A stretch of 40,118 bases of DNA from a phage: sequence record PZ379598.1, one strand, 5' to 3'. Below the pieces are notes generated by a model. It was not told where the DNA came from and searched no databases. It saw only the letters and a program-made list of their open reading frames with translations. The first letter of the stretch is position 1, and the number at the start of each line of letters is the position of its first letter. Of the stretch, positions 858-39,574 are shown in pieces. A program made the translations under genes and the position numbers.

Positions 858-2624
858 CTAGTGGAACGTAACGTATGCCCCTAGTCCAAGCTCGTCGTCC
901 GTATCGTGAGTTACCCGGACCCCATTGTCCCAGAACTCAGTGTGGATGGACTCGAAGCCTTTCCGTGGGTTCTCCATCTGTTCCTCCAGCCACTCCTCAG
1001 TGACTTCACGTTCTCCTTTGTTGGCATCCTTAGCCATAGACTCAACGAAGAACTGTACACCGATAGCCAGCGCATCAAGTCGGTCATCGTGTGCCAAGGC
1101 TCCACGTTCACGAGAGATACGTGTCATCTGGTAGAAGAGAGAGTAGATAGGGTTACGAACACCATCCTTATCAGAGGCCGACTGGTAGTCTTGGACGATA
1201 GCAGCAGCGTTAACGATAAGTCGGTGAGACCCCATGATAGGCTCCAGAACGTCACAGATGCGGAGTTCTTTCTGACCCTTACTCTTCACTTCAGTTACAG
1301 CCGCAGGATGGATACGGGCCGCTACAGGCTTGAATAGCTCAAGGTACATACCATCACCGAAGTTACCCTCAATGACGTATTCGTTGACCTTCCACTTACG
1401 ACCAATCTTAGCCAAGGCTTCCAGCGTAGAGTCTTCATAACCACCACGCATACCACCAACTTCCATAGCGAAGATGTAGCCGTTGAGCTGGTACAGTACC
1501 GCATAACCAGTTTCATCCTTACCACGACCACTAGGGTCAATGACCAGAATCTTCTGGGTGTACGAGCTAAAGGCAGAGCCTACAGTCTGATACGTGTGGT
1601 ACGAGTCACCCATGAGTCCAACGTTAGGAACGTCCTCACGCTTGTTCTGAGGGTTCGGCAACCATTGGTAGACCATTGGGCTGGACGCTGGGTCCAAGTC
1701 GGCTACGATAAGGTCACGGAGCTTCAGAGGGTACTTCTCGGCATCACTCAGGTTCGGGTTAAGCATGAACTGTAGAGCGAAGCCAGCTTTACCGTAGGAC
1801 AGCTCACGTTCCTTCAGGTCCGTATCATCGAAGCGTACTTCATCAGTCGGACGCCAGTAGAAGGACTCAGGGTCCTCTTCCAGCTCTGCCTGAAGCATAG
1901 GAGCCAGACGGTCGCCGTAAGACTGCCAGTCCTTCCTGTCGCGTGGATAACGAGCGGGCCAGATAGTAGTGGTGTACCCACGACCTTCCAGCTCACGGTA
2001 CAGGGTCATCTCGTTCTGAGGAGTACCCAGATAGATGATCGTACCTCCCGGCTTCAGGATAGCGTCGAACTCTTTCACAAGCTCTGATAGACGGTCTCGT
2101 GCAGCCTGAGTCGCTGAGTTGTTCGGAACCTCCACGTCATCGGCAATCAGGATGTCAGCACGACTACCAGTCAACTGACCAGTGATACCAACGGACTTAA
2201 CCGAAGGTGAGTGGTCTGGCTTGGCAGGTCCCACGTCGAAGCTGATAACCGCATCTCGCTGCCCCTGTTTAGGTTTGAGTTCCTGAAGCTGAGGCATGAG
2301 GTCGATGATTCGCTTGATGAAGATGGAGTTCGCATCGGCTCGTTCCTTTGAGGCCGACACAATCATGAACTTCAAGTCTGGGTTATTCCATAGCTTCCAG
2401 ACCACAAAGCCACAGGTCAAAAACGACTTGCCAATACCACGGAACGCCTGAAGGATGAAGCGGCGATTATCCCCAGCAGCCAGCTTCTTACACATATCTA
2501 TCTGGCAGCGGGTTGGAACCGGAAGACTTAGTGCTTTCCAGAGAACGAAGATGAAGAACACGAAGTCGTCCCTCATCCTTTGGACCATTTCTGCCTGTCT
2601 TTCAGCGGGTGTTTTCTTAGACAT
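858..2624 (-). CDS. gp19: Terminase large subunit (T7 gp19-like)
   Basis: 588 aa; near-colinear identity with recalled T7 gp19 ([58 protein letters not shown]). Confidence 0.95.
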
Positions 2625-3054
2625 ATAGTCCCTCCAGCATTAGGTCCCGGACAGCGATAGACTCCTCTAAAGTGGGACGTGTTGTTCGCATATAGGCATT
2701 CCCGCGTTTAACCTGAATCCTATAACCATTCTGGTGACGGGTAACGCACTTCACTCCTGTCTTAGAGTCATAATGGCTACCAGTATTCCAAGTGTTTTCA
2801 GCGGCAGTAACGAGCCGTAAGTTACTTAAGGTATTATTGCTAGGGTTCCTGTAGATGTGGTCTATTTGCATACCATGCGGTATAGGACCATTGGTTAGTT
2901 CCCATATCACACGATGGGCCCGCTTACTGCCTAGACTTCGTGTCTGTACTATCCAATATCCCATCCGACTTAATGTTCCCACAGGCTTTCCAGTCCTAAC
3001 GGAGACCAGACCGGATGGACTAGCCGGGTCCACTTTGTAGTAATCACTTAACAC
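2617..3054 (-). CDS. HNH homing endonuclease
   Basis: 145 aa with an HNH core ([41 protein letters not shown]); overlaps the spanin 3' end and the terminase start. Confidence 0.8.
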
Positions 3055-14701: not shown

Positions 14702-17059
14702 TTAGACGGAACGAGCTTTCTTAGCGTATGACGCCTCCCAGCCACACCCAACGATGGACACTGGGGTAGGATAGTCTGACTCTAAGGTTAGACTCGTGGT
14801 TAATGCGTTACCATTCATAGCGAAGCGATACTGACCATCCCCAATGTTGGTAGTCCCAATGGTCTGCTGACCAAGGGTGTACCCATTAAAGGTATTCACG
14901 AACTCCCGCTCACCGTTTCTGACAATGAGTCTAAGAGCGCCAGTGTCCTTGTAGTTGACCCAAGCCCGACGAAGTTGTAGACGACCAGTGTCTTCAGACT
15001 GAGTGCCGCTATCGTCTTCAATCTTAATCAGGAACCGTGAGAACTTGTAGGACATCAGATAAGACCGTCCTATGAACACTGTACGTCCTGACCAATCGCC
15101 ATTTAGTATAGCCACAGTTGAGATGTCTGTCAATTCACCAAGGTCCACGTAGGCACCCTGACTGTCAATAAGATAGTACCGACCGGGAGACGGAGCGTTT
15201 CCACCATAAGCAGAACCAATGTCAACCGTAGTCTTATAGGTGTCAACGTTGTATGAGCCAATTGGTATTACCATAGACACCTTGGAGTCAACGTGGAGTC
15301 TATATGGCTCTAACGGAAAGTCGGTTGCCTCCTTGATAAACTTAAGGTGCTCAAGGTCCACGCCGCCTTGGTGCTGACGAACAATGAACATGGTAGAGCC
15401 AATCGAAGCAGACGCCAGAATCTTATCAGCTTTAGGGAACTCCCAGTGCGACCAAGAGGCTTGAAGCTGTACGCCGTCCTTAAACAAGAACTTATAGATG
15501 TAGATTCGGTTGTATGCACCTGTAGAGTTGACGCAGATGTAGTTCTCAGTCCCTGTACCTTGAATGTCAAACACCCCGTTAGGGATATAGGACAGTACGT
15601 GACCAGTGGTATCATCGGCATCCTTCACGTCAGACACATCTGCTACAGCGAAGTATCGCTTAATGCTGGTGAATGACCCACGAGGAGCTGAGAAGAAGAC
15701 TGAGCGTCCTACAGCGAACGGTCTGGCATTATCTCCTAAGGCAAACTCTGAGCCTACATCAAGCTGGATAGACTTCGAGGTAAGCACCCCAGAGCTTGTC
15801 ATCACGAACTGAACCTCATCCGACCAAAGTAGTAGCTGCTCGCTAAACGGAACGGCATACTTAAGGATTGAGATTCGAGGGTGACTTACAGCTACATCAA
15901 TAGGGTCATCATCACTCAGTGTCGCCACACTCTTAGGGAAGAACGAAAAGTAGCTGGCTGAACGGCTCATGATTACGTTCTCGCCTGACAAGAACCCTAG
16001 CCTGTTCCTGTAGAAGAACACATCGTTAATCGTAGCATCCACGAAGCTAGGCATAGGGTTTGTGTCATCATTACCAGCACCACGCTTGGACCAGTCCAGA
16101 GTCTTGAACTCAAAGGAGCCGTCAGATTGTCTCACCAGAGCATGTGGCATTGTGGTGTTATCGAACCCAGTGACCACTCCCGGCTCTACTGTCTCCTTCC
16201 ACGTCTTAGTGTTGGAGTCGTACATCACGTAATATTCATCGGCGCTACTGTTGGTCTCACCTTGAATCTTAATGATGTACCCATTTGGAGCTGCAAGAGG
16301 CAACTTAGAGATTGTTTGCACCGTGTCGAGTACTGGGCTGATTAGCTGGTTAGCATAGCCATCCTCCGTCTCCACTGAGTTAATGTCAGTCCCTGAAGGG
16401 GCAGTGATTAACAGGAATCCAGACCCAAGGTCGAACGTGAAGGTAGGGTAAGCAGCAACAAGAAGGTCTCTCAGAGCTGCACCGATGGCTTGAGCGTCCA
16501 CCTTAGGTGGGTCATTCTCGGCATCATTACCTGCTGGTAGCTTATGCGAGACCTTAACGTCACCGTTGATTCCCACCTTAAGGGTTCGACCATACTGTCC
16601 GCCACGCAGGTTAATTAAAGCTCGTGCTTTGCGGTTATAACCAGAGTGTGACTTCTCGCTTCCACCTTTAACGACAACCTTACGGTTCACGATGAACGTA
16701 TAGTCTGCAACAGTAACGACACGGATGTCATCTCGCGGGTTGGACGACTTAACGTAGTCTACCGCACCGGAAACTGAGTATTGATTACCACTCAAGTCAA
16801 CTACCTGAATGTTTGACCCATTGAACACGATGTAATACTGCTCATGCTCGTCACGGTTAATCAGGTGGAACTTAGGGTTGCTCCCAACGTCGATGTTAAG
16901 ACGTCTCTTGAAGACTGTAGGTGGACGCTTCTGGAGTCCATCACTCTCGGATGACCAGCAGTTAACCTGTGCCTCGCCTTGGTCCGAGAACCTCAGGATG
17001 TCTGGCTGCTGGCTAATGCCACCTTTAAGGTTCTTGATTGATTGAGTAATTAGTGGCAT
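14702..17059 (-). CDS. gp12: Tail tubular protein B (T7 gp12-like)
   Basis: 785 aa; extensive identity with recalled T7 gp12 (SQSIKNLKGGISQQPDILR, GLQKRPP, HLINRDEHEQYY, ILKYAVPFSE, RLQLRRAWVNY, GCGWE). Confidence 0.95.
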   Translation of the reverse strand: MPLITQSIKNLKGGISQQPDILRFSDQGEAQVNCWSSESDGLQKRPPTVFKRRLNIDVGSNPKFHLINRDEHEQYYIVFNGSNIQVVDLSGNQYSVSGAVDYVKSSNPRDDIRVVTVADYTFIVNRKVVVKGGSEKSHSGYNRKARALINLRGGQYGRTLKVGINGDVKVSHKLPAGNDAENDPPKVDAQAIGAALRDLLVAAYPTFTFDLGSGFLLITAPSGTDINSVETEDGYANQLISPVLDTVQTISKLPLAAPNGYIIKIQGETNSSADEYYVMYDSNTKTWKETVEPGVVTGFDNTTMPHALVRQSDGSFEFKTLDWSKRGAGNDDTNPMPSFVDATINDVFFYRNRLGFLSGENVIMSRSASYFSFFPKSVATLSDDDPIDVAVSHPRISILKYAVPFSEQLLLWSDEVQFVMTSSGVLTSKSIQLDVGSEFALGDNARPFAVGRSVFFSAPRGSFTSIKRYFAVADVSDVKDADDTTGHVLSYIPNGVFDIQGTGTENYICVNSTGAYNRIYIYKFLFKDGVQLQASWSHWEFPKADKILASASIGSTMFIVRQHQGGVDLEHLKFIKEATDFPLEPYRLHVDSKVSMVIPIGSYNVDTYKTTVDIGSAYGGNAPSPGRYYLIDSQGAYVDLGELTDISTVAILNGDWSGRTVFIGRSYLMSYKFSRFLIKIEDDSGTQSEDTGRLQLRRAWVNYKDTGALRLIVRNGEREFVNTFNGYTLGQQTIGTTNIGDGQYRFAMNGNALTTSLTLESDYPTPVSIVGCGWEASYAKKARSV

Positions 17060-32679: not shown

Positions 32680-32726
32680 CTAGCACAAAGCAAAGAAACC
32701 CAGCAGTCCGCGAAGACCACTGGGTT
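32680..32726 (-). terminator. Early (TE-like) intrinsic terminator after the ligase gene
   Basis: Minus strand CCCAGTGGTC-TTCG-CGGACTGCTGGG followed by TTTCTTTGCTTTG: GC-rich stem, UUCG tetraloop, U-rich tail, directly after the ligase stop as T7 TE follows gene 1.3. Confidence 0.75.
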
Positions 32727-32735
32727 GACATTTAG

Positions 32736-33782
32736 TTAGCTCTTAACGGTTGGATTGTCTTCCGTTCCACGCCAGCACTTGAAGCTAGGGTGACGAAGAG
32801 AGCCATCAGGGAACCGCTCCATGAATAGCACTTCACACTGCCAGCCTTCGTATGGATTGATTCCACCGAGAATATATGTATCAGTGTTACAGGCTTCCGT
32901 AAACTCAGCCTTCTGTTCTTCAGTCAGACCACAGGCGTTAACCACCATGCCATCCTCAAGCAGAACCTCGAAGCCGATGACCTTGCCCTCGTTAGCCTTA
33001 CCCTGAGTCCCCCACACGAGACCACACACGGTCCCGTCGATGGTCTCCTCAGGCTTCATCTTCCACATGCCTGACTTCTTGCCACGCTTATATTTACCCA
33101 GTGGGTCCTTGACTACCAGACCCTCGTGTCCTTCCAGACGCTTCTGTTCGTACAGGGAGTTGAGCGACTCAAGGTCATAGACCGTGTGTGACTCAGACAG
33201 AGCCCAGTCGATTTCCGGGAAGTATTTCTGGAGGAGAGGGACGATAGCTTCGGCCTTCAGGCGTGTGACGCTATGGATAGGACCTTCGGCTTTCGGGTCA
33301 GCAATGGTTGTCATGTCGATGACACCGTAGACCACAACCTGAAGTCGTGACCGGGATCCCCAGAACGGGAGCTTCTTTCCACCAGTCGCCGGCGAATAGT
33401 ATTCAGCGAACTCCTCGTTGTTAGGCTTGAGCCACTTCGTTCGGATGAGACCTGAGGAGGTGTTGAAGTCTACACCTTTGACCATGACCTCGCCATCAAT
33501 CATCATGCCCACACCTTCGTAGCCGGATTGACGCAGGAACCATCGCCAGTCAGCTTGGGTCCACGCATTACCTAACTCAGAGTTCATCCACTCCAAGGCT
33601 GGTAGAGGTTTCGACTCGCGGCTAAGCCAGTAGGTCTCACCTTCACGCAGGACCAGGAGGTTCAGGCGCACACCATCGTACTTCACTTCAGCTTCCAGAG
33701 ACCCGGCTGCTTCCAGTGCCTTCTTAATGCCAGACTCAGAGTAATCTACAGCGCGGTGAGGGTTGGTCTTGATAGTTGTCAT
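32736..33782 (-). CDS. gp1.3: ATP-dependent DNA ligase (T7 gp1.3-like)
   Basis: 348 aa; IKTNP..AV, the active-site lysine motif E.KYDGVR, EGHEGL.VKDP, YKRGKKSG.WKMKP, EGKVIGFEVLLE and C-terminal DGSLRHPSF...RGTEDNP as in recalled T7 ligase. Confidence 0.95.
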   Translation of the reverse strand: MTTIKTNPHRAVDYSESGIKKALEAAGSLEAEVKYDGVRLNLLVLREGETYWLSRESKPLPALEWMNSELGNAWTQADWRWFLRQSGYEGVGMMIDGEVMVKGVDFNTSSGLIRTKWLKPNNEEFAEYYSPATGGKKLPFWGSRSRLQVVVYGVIDMTTIADPKAEGPIHSVTRLKAEAIVPLLQKYFPEIDWALSESHTVYDLESLNSLYEQKRLEGHEGLVVKDPLGKYKRGKKSGMWKMKPEETIDGTVCGLVWGTQGKANEGKVIGFEVLLEDGMVVNACGLTEEQKAEFTEACNTDTYILGGINPYEGWQCEVLFMERFPDGSLRHPSFKCWRGTEDNPTVKS

Positions 33783-34033
33783 TATTTCCAGCTCCTATAA
33801 GCGTTAAGTTGCTGCAAGCACCATTGCTCACAGTTAAAGATTTCGTGTTCGGTAAACTCGCGGGAGACCAGAAGCCTTCCACCGTCTGCTTCAATGATTC
33901 TGACCAATACCATGCGGGAGTACGGCGAGTCATCCATTAGGACCTCAAGTCCTGCCTCGCTCATCCAGCGGTGGGTCCGCCCTAACGATGACCACTGGCT
34001 CGGGGATGCGTCGAATAACCAACGTTTACTCAT
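33782..34033 (-). CDS. gp1.2: T7 gp1.2-like protein (in T7, inhibitor of host dGTPase)
   Basis: 83 aa; C-terminal half resembles recalled T7 gp1.2 (RI.E..G.L...........E..FN.C..WL....Y..W). Confidence 0.7.
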   Translation of the reverse strand: MSKRWLFDASPSQWSSLGRTHRWMSEAGLEVLMDDSPYSRMVLVRIIEADGGRLLVSREFTEHEIFNCEQWCLQQLNAYRSWK

Positions 34034-34036
34034 GGC

Positions 34037-34216
34037 TTACACTCCTACGAAATACTTCTCTTGGTTAACCAGAGAGTCTTTACCTTCAGCGTTTCGGAAA
34101 GCGCCTTTGATACCACCACCACGCTTGGTCTTGTTCAGTTTGCGGCCCTTCGGGATGTAACCTTCAGTCTGCTGACGTTCACGGATGCGCTCGAAGTTGA
34201 TAGTGTTCTGATACAT
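34037..34216 (-). CDS. gp1.1: T7 gp1.1-like small basic protein (59 aa)
   Basis: Hand-translated ORF MYQNTINFERIRERQQTEGYIPKGRKLNKTKRGGGIKGAF... containing KGRKLNKTKR, identical to the motif in recalled T7 gp1.1; just below the 60-aa track cutoff. Confidence 0.7.
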   Translation of the reverse strand: MYQNTINFERIRERQQTEGYIPKGRKLNKTKRGGGIKGAFRNAEGKDSLVNQEKYFVGV

Positions 34217-34249
34217 ACGGTTAAATCTCCAGTAGTGTTTATTTAGGGT

Positions 34250-34293
34250 TAATCATGAAGGCCACGACTTTGAGTCATGACCTTGAGTCTAAT
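34250..34293 (-). promoter_or_regulatory. Putative RNase III processing hairpin (R1.1 position)
   Basis: Minus strand GACTCAAGGTCATGACTCAAAGTCGTGGCCTTCATGATT; third copy of the conserved element, in the leader between the phi1.1-like promoter and gene 1.1. Confidence 0.6.
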
Positions 34294-34313
34294 CCTATAG
34301 TGATAGTTTAGGG
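34294..34313 (-). promoter_or_regulatory. Phage RNAP promoter (phi1.1 analogue)
   Basis: Plus-strand CCTATAGTGATAGTTTAGGG. Confidence 0.8.
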
Positions 34314-34333
34314 TTAACCTCTTCTGCGTTGGA

Positions 34334-34603
34334 TTAAAGTGAATACTGCGAGTGCTCCCAGCCACATGGCCAGTAACTGTATGTCTGTCGTTTGGCCTGC
34401 TCCAGCTTGGACACTGCGTCCTTCAGGTACTTCTCGTGGCTGGACTCGACCAGATATACAAGAGTCTTGAACGGGATGTTAAGCTGCTTGGACATCTCGG
34501 TAGGGATGACCGTGGTCTTCACCAGACCCTTGCCGTTGTGTTCTGTTACGGTCACGATTTGAGTCCCACCATTAACGCCAGTATGCTTGTGTGCAAATTT
34601 CAT
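34334..34603 (-). CDS. Hypothetical protein (89 aa)
   Basis: ORF with AAGGAGAG 4 nt upstream of the ATG; lies between RNAP and the phi1.1 promoter, where T7 has no gene. Confidence 0.65.
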   Translation of the reverse strand: MKFAHKHTGVNGGTQIVTVTEHNGKGLVKTTVIPTEMSKQLNIPFKTLVYLVESSHEKYLKDAVSKLEQAKRQTYSYWPCGWEHSQYSL

Positions 34604-34613
34604 AACTCTCTCC

Positions 34614-34844
34614 TTATCTAATTAGAGGGAATGACGGATACTGAATGCGCTCGTCTTCCATCCACGCGTTAAGAACTTCATCAATCGAAGCTATAAGGTT
34701 GTACTCGTTAGGTTGAATCCACCCAGTCACACCCGACTGTAATCTGTCTCTGAGAATGATTAAATCCTTATAAGTCAGCTCTACATGGCAACGTCCCGAC
34801 CCATCGTTGAATACCCTGTTGTGTGCTACAAGTTTCATTGACAT
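34614..34844 (-). CDS. Hypothetical protein (76 aa)
   Basis: ORF with AGGAGGAG upstream, 15 nt after the RNAP stop; no recognisable motif. Confidence 0.65.
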   Translation of the reverse strand: MSMKLVAHNRVFNDGSGRCHVELTYKDLIILRDRLQSGVTGWIQPNEYNLIASIDEVLNAWMEDERIQYPSFPLIR

Positions 34845-34859
34845 ATACTCCTCCTGTTG

Positions 34860-37541
34860 TTAAGCGAATGCAAAGTCTGAAGACAAGATGTCTTCGATAT
34901 TCAGTTTACCTTTCTTCGGAAGCTCAGGCAACTTGTCTCTCTGGCTCTCGTGAAGCTGGTATTCAAACTGCTCGTAGAAGTCAAGCAGCACATCGTTGTC
35001 GCGGTATGTCTCGACCATCGTCTCACGGACTCCACGGAACAGATACTCAGCGTCAGCCGGGATGGTCCCGAAGCTATCGTGAATCACTGCGAATGACATC
35101 ACGCCATATTTGCGGTGCGTGTGGACTACAGTCTTGCGGAGGTGGCTACCATCTTGTGAGTGGACGAAGTTCGGGCTAATGCCTGACTCCTGCTTGTGCT
35201 TGTCCAGCTCTTTCTTCGTGCCTTTGTTGACGGTAGGCTGAAGGTTGAATGACCCTAAGAACATCAGGTTCAGACGAGTGGTGTCCTTCTTGCGGTATTC
35301 CTGCCAGACAGGGAAACCATCAGGTGTGACCCAGTGTACCGGAAGACAAGGCTTCAGGATTTCTCCAGTCTTCTTGTCCTTCACTTCAGCAGCAAGCAGC
35401 TTGGCAGCACCCTGAAGCCATTTCATCGCGTCAACCGCAGCAACTACGGTCACACTCACAGCTTCCCAAATCATCTTAGCCATGAAGCGAGATGCTTGGC
35501 TTGGTTCAGTGAACATAGCGCCAGACCCTGAGTCAATCGCTGGCATCACGATGTCCTCGTAAACTTGGTCTGCGAAGCCGTACTCTTTCGACCCGTAGGC
35601 CAGAGTCATGACCGAACGCTTAGTGACCTTTCGTGACATACCGTAGGTCAGCCACTGACGGGCAAGCTCTCGTGTCCCCAGCTTGAGACGCTCGGTAATC
35701 TCACCAGTTTTCTTGTCCTCGTGAGTTACCATCTCGTTGTCCGTACCGTTAACCAGTAGGACTTTAAGCTCCTCCTCAATGCGGTCAGACACGATGCGGT
35801 AGATGTCTTGGACCTTACCGGATGGCGTCAGGTTTACTGCATGTCCACCGATGTGGTCGCGAAGCATAGCGCTGAAGTGCTGAATCCCAGAGCAGGACCC
35901 ATCGAACGCTATCGGCAGCGAGCAGGAGTAAGACAAGCCGTGGTGCATTACGCCAGCATACTCGAAGCAGAACGCTAGGAAGCAGAACGGAGAGTCTAAC
36001 TTGCCCCACCACTCAATGCTATCCATCGGTGCCTTGGCAGCAGCCATGATGTTGTCGTGGTTATCTTCCACCCACTTGATACGCTCCTCGAAGGTGACTT
36101 TATCGACACCCGCGCAGTTTGCACCGTGGACCTTCAGCCATTTGAAACCATCAGCACCAATAGGCTTACCGACTGCCAGAGTCAGAAGACCCTTTTGCAT
36201 GTCGTTACCCTGAGGGTTGAACATCGGCACAGCGTAGACGCGACCGCGCCAGTCCATGTTATACGGGAACCAGATGGCCTTGAACTGAGAGAACTTGTTC
36301 GCTTGGTTGACGATAAAGCTCAGTGACAATCTTCGTGACTGTCTGGCCTTCTCGCGGCGATAGATACCAGCAGCAGCCTTCTTCCATGCCTTGAGTTCTT
36401 CTTCAGTCTCACCCGCATAGTCCTCAGGCTTCAGCGGTTCCATCTGAGGGATGTCATCAATAGGCGTGTTGTTCAGCTTCTCGACCATGTTCACCACTTC
36501 CAGAACCTTCTTGTTCACTTTCCAAGGTGTATTCTGAATGATGTTCACAGCGTCATAGACTTCAGGCATATACACGTCTTCGTAGCGTGCTACCGCAGAC
36601 TTAGACCCTAAGCGAATCAGTGGTAATGGTCTGCGTCCTTTGGCCCAGTACCCACCGCCTACGACACCAGTCCACGGCTTAGGTGGAACGACGCAAGGCT
36701 GGTAGACTGGAGCTATACCCGCAAGGCTGAATCCTCGTTGTGCCATCTTCTTGACCCAGAAGTCTGACAGGTGGACCATCTCAACGTCAGCCGCTGCATT
36801 GCCAGCACCGTAACGCTTAAGCTCGACCAGTTGTGTGGACTGGATGACAATCTCCAGCATCTTGATTCCAACGTGGACAGCCTCGGTCGGACTCCAAGTC
36901 CCCCACGCATCTTCCAGTTGGCCTTGCTCCAGCATGGATGCCTCGACCGCTTGCATGTAGGCTTTCTTGTAGGACGCCCCGGCCCGCTTATTCAGGTTAT
37001 CAGCTATCGCCTTCTTGAAGTGCTCTTTCTCCTTGTCACGGATGCGACCGAAGCGGATTTCGTCCTCAAGTGTGCGACCTATCGCTGAGGCCATCGGTGT
37101 AATCGGTATCCCTTCAGGCTTGACCAGCTTGGAGAGTATGACCTTCAGTATGATAACCGCAGCAGACTCGCAGGAGATGCGCAAAGAGCGGACCTTTACG
37201 GCCTTCTCTTCAGTGCTCAACATGGTGAACGCTACGCTCGGACGAGAGGTTGACAGCTTCCCGTCTGGACCTTCATGCCACTCCTTGACGGCTTGCGCAA
37301 TCTTAGGGACCAGAGTCTGCATCAAAGGCTTGGCGACCTGATTGTCTGCCAGTTCCCCTCGCTCAGTCTGTCTCTCAAGGTTCTTGATGAAACGTCGCTC
37401 GCCTTCAGTGTATGCCTCGTGCTCAAGCTGAAGCTGTTTGACTGCAAGGTCTTGCCCGTAGTGGTCAGCCAGTAGGTTAAACGGCTCAATGGCGTTCGAC
37501 ACATCAGAGAAGTCGTGCTTGTCAATAGAGATGACGCTCAT
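34860..37541 (-). CDS. gp1: Single-subunit DNA-directed RNA polymerase (T7 gp1-like)
   Basis: 893 aa; colinear with recalled T7 RNAP from the N-terminus (DFSD...PFN.LADHYG, LEHE.Y..GE.RF) through the C-terminal FAFA. Confidence 0.97.
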   Translation of the reverse strand: MSVISIDKHDFSDVSNAIEPFNLLADHYGQDLAVKQLQLEHEAYTEGERRFIKNLERQTERGELADNQVAKPLMQTLVPKIAQAVKEWHEGPDGKLSTSRPSVAFTMLSTEEKAVKVRSLRISCESAAVIILKVILSKLVKPEGIPITPMASAIGRTLEDEIRFGRIRDKEKEHFKKAIADNLNKRAGASYKKAYMQAVEASMLEQGQLEDAWGTWSPTEAVHVGIKMLEIVIQSTQLVELKRYGAGNAAADVEMVHLSDFWVKKMAQRGFSLAGIAPVYQPCVVPPKPWTGVVGGGYWAKGRRPLPLIRLGSKSAVARYEDVYMPEVYDAVNIIQNTPWKVNKKVLEVVNMVEKLNNTPIDDIPQMEPLKPEDYAGETEEELKAWKKAAAGIYRREKARQSRRLSLSFIVNQANKFSQFKAIWFPYNMDWRGRVYAVPMFNPQGNDMQKGLLTLAVGKPIGADGFKWLKVHGANCAGVDKVTFEERIKWVEDNHDNIMAAAKAPMDSIEWWGKLDSPFCFLAFCFEYAGVMHHGLSYSCSLPIAFDGSCSGIQHFSAMLRDHIGGHAVNLTPSGKVQDIYRIVSDRIEEELKVLLVNGTDNEMVTHEDKKTGEITERLKLGTRELARQWLTYGMSRKVTKRSVMTLAYGSKEYGFADQVYEDIVMPAIDSGSGAMFTEPSQASRFMAKMIWEAVSVTVVAAVDAMKWLQGAAKLLAAEVKDKKTGEILKPCLPVHWVTPDGFPVWQEYRKKDTTRLNLMFLGSFNLQPTVNKGTKKELDKHKQESGISPNFVHSQDGSHLRKTVVHTHRKYGVMSFAVIHDSFGTIPADAEYLFRGVRETMVETYRDNDVLLDFYEQFEYQLHESQRDKLPELPKKGKLNIEDILSSDFAFA

Positions 37542-37614
37542 ACTTAAAGTCCTTGTTATTAGTCTTTCACTTAAAGTCTCTTTGGTCTTTCACTTGGAGT
37601 CTTAGACCTTGAGT

Positions 37615-37633
37615 CCTATAGTGATAGTTAAGT
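37615..37633 (-). promoter_or_regulatory. Phage RNAP promoter directly upstream of the RNAP gene
   Basis: Plus-strand CCTATAGTGATAGTTAAGTC, about 75 nt upstream of the RNAP start codon; the leader contains two copies of AGTCTTTCACTT. Confidence 0.7.
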
Positions 37634-39535: not shown

Positions 39536-39574
39536 TGTGGTACATATTACTTTAAGTCGTTACTGCCTGTCAAC
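39536..39574 (-). promoter_or_regulatory. Host sigma70 early promoter (T7 A3-like)
   Basis: Minus strand TTGACA - 18 nt - TAATAT followed by GTACCACATCGAAAC, paralleling the recalled T7 A3 promoter (TTGACA ... TACGAT GTACCACATGAAAC). A weaker TTGACT-containing candidate lies at about 39675-39715. Confidence 0.65.

Follow-up and report, generated by a model that had tools for sequence, protein, structure and literature searches.

The interval between the phage RNA polymerase (RNAP) gene and the phi1.1-type promoter of PZ379598.1 probably carries three small early genes of the Kayfunavirus lineage rather than two orphans. Two of them, designated ORF A and ORF B, are ordinary early genes that have been deposited as hypothetical proteins in many GenBank Kayfunavirus genomes. 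The third, a micro-ORF of 25 codons, overlaps the end of ORF B in relatives and is predicted to encode a membrane peptide. In PZ379598.1 a private single-base change joins ORF B to the micro-ORF region. Both ORFs were already known; new here are a micro-gene that lacks annotation and the fusion by a single base that accounts for an ORF of 89 aa. The anatomy of the interval (ORF A, ORF B, the micro-ORF and the private mutation) can be described with high confidence.

Gene order and the early transcription unit

The window, that is, the whole stretch of DNA that was analysed (40,118 nt, PZ379598.1), is a complete genome of a Kayfunavirus, a K1F-like relative of T7. In megablast searches with the region and with the left 10 kb, Kayfunavirus genomes (the LM33_P1 group, HC12/HC13, EcoDS1 and K1F relatives) show 94–98% DNA identity, and no identical record was found. 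Coordinates are positions in this stretch, and the genes are read on the minus strand. The features are as follows.

39573..39544: sigma-70-like promoter, near the left end
37611..37633, minus strand: consensus phage promoter GACTTAACTATCACTATAGGAC, some 70 nt before gene 1 begins
34860..37541, minus strand: gene 1, phage RNA polymerase, 893 aa (from the ORF list and the RNAP annotation in relatives)
34614..34844, minus strand: ORF A, 76 aa, acidic (pI 5.5), full-length match to PHROG 28104
34391..34603, minus strand: ORF B, canonical codons 1–71, basic (pI 9.5), PHROG 8082, 'gp1.1' of K1F
34390: T-to-C difference (C on the minus strand, G on the plus strand), T in every relative read
34334..34390, minus strand: private 18-codon tail of ORF B, RQTYSYWPCGWEHSQYSL followed by a stop, an out-of-frame reading of the micro-ORF
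34314..34391, minus strand: micro-ORF remnant with ACG as the start, consensus product in relatives MTDLQLLALWLGALAVFTLIQRRRG
34290..34312, minus strand: phage RNAP promoter (-17 to +6), equivalent of phi1.1, exact match to the phage's own consensus
34244..34297, minus strand: R1.1-like hairpin by RNA folding, leader of the promoter transcript
34037..34216, minus strand: true gp1.1 homologue, 59 aa, Pfam PF08200 (Phage_1_1), E 6e-11, above the curated cutoff
32697..32726, minus strand: intrinsic terminator resembling TE, behind the ligase gene, with a 13-bp stem and then a T run

Counting down from 37541, gene 1 is followed by ORF A, ORF B, the phage promoter, the hairpin, the gp1.1 homologue, gp1.2, ligase and the TE-like terminator. 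The homologue of gene 1 in one relative (L031) carries Pfam RPOL_N/RNA_pol on its record. The original prediction of two ORFs between the RNAP stop (34860) and the phage promoter agrees with the frames present at 34614..34844 and 34334..34603 (both minus strand). They are packed as tightly as it had stated, with gaps of 15 nt from RNAP to ORF A and 10 nt from ORF A to ORF B, and each has the good Shine–Dalgarno site claimed for it, GGAGGA for ORF A and AAGGAG for ORF B, 6–7 nt before the ATG. The count of two genes was too low, since it missed the 25-codon membrane micro-ORF that is coupled to ORF B in relatives.

A promoter and an R1.1-like element had been placed behind the ORFs, and both are found there. 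The phage promoter consensus, CTAAACTATCACTATAGGRA, was derived from 14 minus-strand sites of PZ379598.1, and a consensus promoter at 34312..34290 is followed by a hairpin with a dG of -20.8 kcal/mol (z -2.85), as well as which none of 200 shuffled sequences folds. EcoDS1 has an annotated promoter at the equivalent place. A search of the region against Rfam gave no family, and by analogy with T7 the hairpin would be cleaved by RNase III. An 11-nt direct repeat, TTAACCCTAAA, is present on the minus strand just upstream of the promoter (34307..34317) and again after the hairpin (34242..34252), where it runs on into a degenerate promoter-like sequence, ATAAACACTACTGGAGA. This repeat may represent a site of recombination or else the decayed remains of a second promoter, comparable to the phi1.1A/B pair in T7.

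By their positions, ORF A and ORF B have the layout of class I (early) genes. The TE-like terminator after the ligase gene, where TE is annotated at the equivalent place in EcoDS1, marks the end of the early transcription unit containing them. It had been proposed that they are made from the early host-RNAP transcript together with RNAP. Their location in the class I region agrees with this, but a consensus phage promoter also lies upstream of gene 1, at a place where EcoDS1 again has an annotated one. T7 is not known to have such a promoter before gene 1. With this promoter, the phage polymerase can also transcribe its own gene and the small ORFs that follow. All three small proteins would be made early with RNAP, from transcripts begun at host promoters as well as at the phage promoter in front of gene 1.

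ORF A and ORF B

Neither ORF is an orphan, as the original prediction had called them. ORF A matches PHROG 28104 over its whole length (E 2.1e-56, residues 1–76 on profile positions 1–76 of 76), and residues 1–66 of ORF B, which is 89 aa long here, match the whole 66-position profile of PHROG 8082 (E 9.6e-42). The ORF B core thus belongs to PHROG 8082, and the 18-aa tail lies outside the family. By tblastn, ORF B is found in 221 phage records, down to about 50% identity, from phages of Escherichia, Salmonella, Enterobacter, Citrobacter, Klebsiella and Cronobacter; among these, 40 records also carry ORF A. The view that no family can be recognised holds for characterised families, but both proteins match PHROGs of hypothetical proteins. 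Similarly, 'inserted' is a fitting word for ORF A, which is absent from K1F, but not for the genus-wide ORF B, which adjoins gene 1 directly in K1F because ORF A is missing there.

Purifying selection acts on each of them in the coding frame alone: ORF A has a pN/pS of 0.40 and ORF B one of 0.39, compared with 1.1–1.5 in the off-frames of the two. This indicates real genes and not chance frames. The two were also compared as possible paralogues, which was rejected (hhalign probability 1.3%).

The ORF A family is small, with only 5 representative clusters at 50% identity in an exhaustive phmmer search of 1.84 billion representatives. All four distant homologues (40–51% identity) lie directly after an RNAP gene, and three of them directly before an ORF B homologue; the contig with the fourth (L032) ends at ORF A. 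Judged from these sequence comparisons, ORF A is an optional accessory gene specific to the slot directly after the RNAP gene. Its AlphaFold2 (AF2) model is moderate (pLDDT 66, topology beta-beta-alpha-alpha) and too weak for a fold search. In L042 (1501..1704; Logan SRR30814700), which like L041 discussed below is a metagenome assembly and possibly misassembled, ORF A has a stop at codon 68 and the conserved C-terminal QYPxFPxIR tail is lost.

ORF B, on the other hand, is by its distribution in sequence records a genus-wide Kayfunavirus gene. Two database searches gave homologues in 157–191 protein clusters. Its normal length is 66–71 aa, with a range of 55–72 aa among the 120 matches listed per search, and the matches listed in a profile search, many of them on phage-sized contigs of about 40 kb, are at most 72 aa long. 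The related Kayfunavirus Bas105 has ORF B at 93% identity. The AF2 model is confident (pLDDT 94) and has a beta-meander of three strands, after which come two helices, the first short and the second long.

A conserved micro-ORF coupled to ORF B

In 34 of the 35 relatives read, the TGA stop codon of ORF B overlaps the start codon of a short reading frame as ATGA or, in L012 and L031, as GTGA. The exception, L038, is an assembly in which RNAP is fragmented and ORF B truncated. The frame has 25 codons (26 in L031), encodes MTDLQLLALWLGALAVFTLIQRRRG or close variants of it, of the form MTD(L/I)QLLALWLGALAVFTLIQRRRG, and ends in TAA, which in relatives stands 2 bases before the -17 position of the promoter. 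A comparison of 30 unique nucleotide versions gives a pN/pS of 0.26 for this frame and of 1.07 for each of the other two, and codon positions 1, 2 and 3 have 10, 7 and 16 variable sites, respectively. Both the micro-ORF and the overlap persist even when ORF B identity falls to about 45%. The basic tail in L012 and L031 is encoded by different arginine and glycine codons, all synonymous. These sequence features argue that the micro-ORF is a conserved, unannotated gene for a putative membrane peptide of 25 aa.

The peptide has a hydrophobic core, LLALWLGALAVFTLI, with a mean Kyte–Doolittle value of 2.5 over 15 residues (2.2–2.5 over 15–17), between an acidic N-terminus (MTD) and a basic C-terminus (QRRRG), and these features are conserved in all variants. 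It thereby has the at least 15 hydrophobic residues and the charges fitting the positive-inside rule that mark a single-pass membrane protein. From this rule, the peptide is predicted to insert into the inner membrane, where it probably resides with the C-terminus facing the cytoplasm. No family in PHROG, Pfam or NCBIfam covers the peptide, and none of the seven annotated records inspected has a gene call for it. A tblastn search with the 25-aa peptide gave no match, probably because the query is short and of low complexity, and the survey was made by DNA instead.

The overlap suggests how the two genes might be expressed together: ribosomes that end ORF B would restart on the overlapping ATGA or GTGA, and ORF B and the peptide would be produced as a coupled pair. 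Identical ORF B C-termini occur with different peptide variants, that is, the two do not co-vary, and a physical partnership between them is therefore unsupported beyond the coupling.

Another frame in this region has been annotated in its place. An ORF of 38 aa (MAGSTRSIHFNPTQKRLTLNYHYRIRLKVMTQSRGLHD; 34249..34365, minus strand) spans the micro-ORF, the promoter and the hairpin, and is a CDS in some GenBank relatives, for example at 15228..15344 of MZ234009; among the seven inspected records, one has this call. Its frame, the third of the region, is unconstrained (pN/pS 1.07), for which reason it is judged spurious; it is probably a false gene call that replaces the real micro-ORF.

L041 (1501..1779; Logan SRR31227532, a 39-kb contig) shows a different arrangement, in which codons 1–66 of ORF A are joined to the final 9 codons of ORF B. 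TGC stands in place of the ORF B stop TGA, and the ATG and the frame of the micro-ORF are intact (MPDLQLLALWLGALAAFTLIQRRRG) though most of ORF B is deleted. Either the phage can do without ORF B, as this variant suggests, or the contig has been misassembled.

A single-base change at 34390 and the 89-aa frame

In EcoDS1 and LM33_P1, ORF B ends with TGA after 71 codons, and the alignment places CGA there in PZ379598.1. The base at 34390 is T in all of the 30 unique relative sequences across which the junction was compared. Because TGA and ATG overlap in ATGA, one transition affects both genes: TGA becomes CGA, by which the ORF B stop is lost, and ATG becomes ACG, by which the micro-ORF start is lost. 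The junction of PZ379598.1 accordingly reads ACGA, which lacks the ATGA/GTGA geometry of coupling. The 89-aa frame described by the original prediction is indeed open (34334..34603), but this length reflects a private stop loss, as relatives stop at the TGA and the protein is normally 66–71 aa. The odd length is thus explained by a single-base fusion of ORF B to the micro-ORF region, and as a consequence ORF B would run on for 18 meaningless codons.

Database searches agree with a private event. A set of about 15 billion proteins does not contain the exact 89-aa sequence, and has the 71-aa version, identical over residues 1–71, on 13 contigs; the best match of the 57-nt junction in phage records is 96.5%. 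The ORF B frame past the TGA contains extra stop codons in about half of the relatives, K1F included. Micro-ORF Leu9 is replaced by Met, a second difference that L018 and L036 naturally share. The result is an internal ATG (34365..34367) without a Shine–Dalgarno sequence, the product of which would be MWLGALAVFTLIQRRRG, 17 aa at most. Judged from its sequence, PZ379598.1 probably no longer makes the micro-ORF peptide, although low-level initiation at ACG or use of the internal ATG may render the loss incomplete.

Gene names and neighbouring genes

ORF B is called 'gp1.1' in K1F and Dev2, and '1.05' in CR44b. It has no match to PF08200, the family of T7 gp1.1, and the name 'gp1.1' is for this reason a misnomer. 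K1F and Dev2 name the true PF08200 homologue 'gp1.15', and EcoDS1 labels both proteins 'gp1.1'. Annotation transfer in this region is unreliable.

The possibility that the ORFs are gp1.05-type genes was raised with the original prediction as a ground for abandoning it. PF25755 (T3 gp1.05) matches gp1.05 of EcoDS1, used as a positive control, at E 4.6e-24, and matches neither ORF A nor ORF B in Pfam searches at E up to 1, so that both are free of gp1.05-type homology. In many relatives, a gp1.05 gene (PF25755, 152–164 aa, with a coiled-coil N-terminus) is located between the micro-ORF stop and the promoter; in EcoDS1 it occupies 2279..2762 (L001), compared with 34307..34317 of PZ379598.1. Its Shine–Dalgarno sequence is the AGAGG of the last codons of the micro-ORF. 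It is absent from PZ379598.1 and the LM33_P1 group, and all observed 'KWLALWLAFLAVY' variants of the peptide accompany gp1.05.

Downstream, gp1.2 (dGTPase inhibitor, PHROG 6515; 33782..34033, minus strand) is the 83-aa allele of EcoDS1 and Bas105 and not the 87-aa LM33_P1 type, while its flanking DNA is closest to that of LM33_P1, an instance of local mosaicism. A megablast coverage of 82% is explained by this difference of allele. In the BASEL paper, gp1.2 alleles have been linked to PifA sensitivity.

Searches for function and the proposed role

The absence of a characterised family, expected from the original prediction, was confirmed by profile and structure searches (Pfam, NCBIfam and PDB sequences for both ORFs; Foldseek and BFVD for the ORF B model). 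Scans of ORF A and ORF B against Pfam, NCBIfam and PADLOC gave only a sub-threshold HTH_VI match to ORF B, and profile searches of both against PDB sequences gave no match. The ORF B model had nothing below E 0.3 by Foldseek against PDB, and in BFVD it matched only its own family and an uncharacterised 59-aa protein of ECBP5 (Gajwadongvirus; L062 8966..9145) with TM 0.70/0.82 and 17% identity. The gene for the latter lies between the helicase and DNA polymerase genes, in the replication region, and not after RNAP; from the model comparison, this protein may be a very distant relative of ORF B. The published AntiDefenseFinder output for Bas105 contains Ocr only. The sequences of ORF A and ORF B are absent from the accessory-gene supplements of Silas et al., and no paper with these sequences was found in a literature search.

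A role in anti-defence or host takeover is plausible from the position of the genes. The three genes appear dispensable, since the peptide start is lost here, most of ORF B in L041, and the end of ORF A in L042; such losses would be more expected of host-directed accessory genes than of genes for core replication. As a tentative proposal, ORF A, ORF B and the micro-ORF would be early, non-essential and host-directed, with ORF B and the peptide as a pair, and the peptide, with its single hydrophobic helix and QRRRG tail, would act at the inner membrane. A bolder version, to which slightly less credence is given, is that ORF B and the peptide form a genus-wide coupled early module acting on the host inner membrane, of which PZ379598.1 would be a natural knock-out. 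Such a module might block a membrane-associated defence, exclude superinfection, or be sensed by an abortive-infection system, and the peptide might have been switched off here, for example, to escape a host that senses it.

Part of this reading depends on the base at 34390 being genuine. If C there were a sequencing or assembly error, PZ379598.1 would have a standard 71-aa ORF B and a coupled micro-ORF. It is a single base, unique among the relatives read and about 15 billion proteins, as an error would be, but single-base substitution errors are uncommon in finished phage assemblies, and accessory genes have been lost at the same locus in other assemblies (L041 and L042); an error is considered unlikely. 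It is less likely still that the 89-aa product is functional, either by dual coding or as a newly extended ORF B, with the 25-codon frame being no gene. One assembly (P0128/L041) does have the same stop changed from TGA to TGC and read through into the same frame. However, that assembly retains an intact micro-ORF ATG, the extension frame is unconstrained (pN/pS 1.07) and is interrupted by the extra stops mentioned above, and ORF B homologues are at most 72 aa among the matches listed in two database searches. The micro-ORF frame, in contrast, has a pN/pS of 0.26, and its codons have been replaced synonymously in L012 and L031.

The remaining alternatives concern what the ORFs are. That they are chance open frames or non-functional remnants might be supposed from their small size, their lack of known function, and the disruption of ORF A and ORF B in some assemblies. 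This idea is effectively refuted by purifying selection in frame, and strong Shine–Dalgarno sites before both ORFs, synteny conserved down to 40% identity and the confident AF2 fold of ORF B (pLDDT 94) also speak against it. ORF B might instead be a small nucleic-acid-binding regulator of phage or host expression, not an anti-defence protein, with ORF A as an unrelated moron; this is thought about as improbable as an error at 34390. The preferred reading is that of three small early genes, the last of which is probably inactivated by a private mutation in PZ379598.1.

The micro-ORF is a concrete case of a missed phage micro-protein, and PZ379598.1, in which a naturally occurring single-base difference disrupts the ORF B/peptide pair, offers a ready genetic contrast with LM33_P1-type phages. 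That 'gp1.1' names two unrelated proteins can mislead annotation transfer. Dozens of Kayfunavirus genomes, several of them candidates for phage therapy, already have database entries for ORF A and ORF B. The broader importance is modest, the searches having assigned no function.

Comparison with known systems

ORF A is 100% identical to gp9 of LM33_P1 and 93% identical to AS9_0007 of EcoDS1, both of PHROG 28104 and in the same slot, and no feature distinguishes it from the former. Over residues 1–71, ORF B likewise shows no difference from its LM33_P1 counterpart, and its identity to gp1.1 of K1F is about 97%. Like 'gp1.1' of K1F and Dev2, it follows gene 1 or ORF A directly, but that family has a TGA stop, which ORF B of PZ379598.1 lacks, having an 18-aa out-of-frame tail in addition. 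In many relatives, EcoDS1 and L031 among them, the stretch from gene 1 to the phi1.1 promoter also houses the T3 gp1.05-type gene (PF25755); its product is unrelated in sequence to ORF A and ORF B, and PZ379598.1 does not carry the gene.

In T7, gp0.3 (Ocr), gp0.4, gp0.6 and gp1.2 are class I proteins that act in host takeover or anti-defence. They are likewise small and are expressed from the early unit together with RNAP, but ORF A and ORF B are not homologous to them. Bacterial type I toxins and the modulators AcrZ and MgtS are small membrane peptides with a single helix. The 25-aa peptide is of the same size class as the type I toxins Ibs, ShoB and TisB and the small inner-membrane modulators AcrZ and MgtS, and resembles them in its predicted single hydrophobic helix and basic cytoplasmic end. 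It shows no recognised sequence similarity to them and has no antisense RNA context. It is phage-encoded, would be made early, and would be coupled in translation to the upstream gene.
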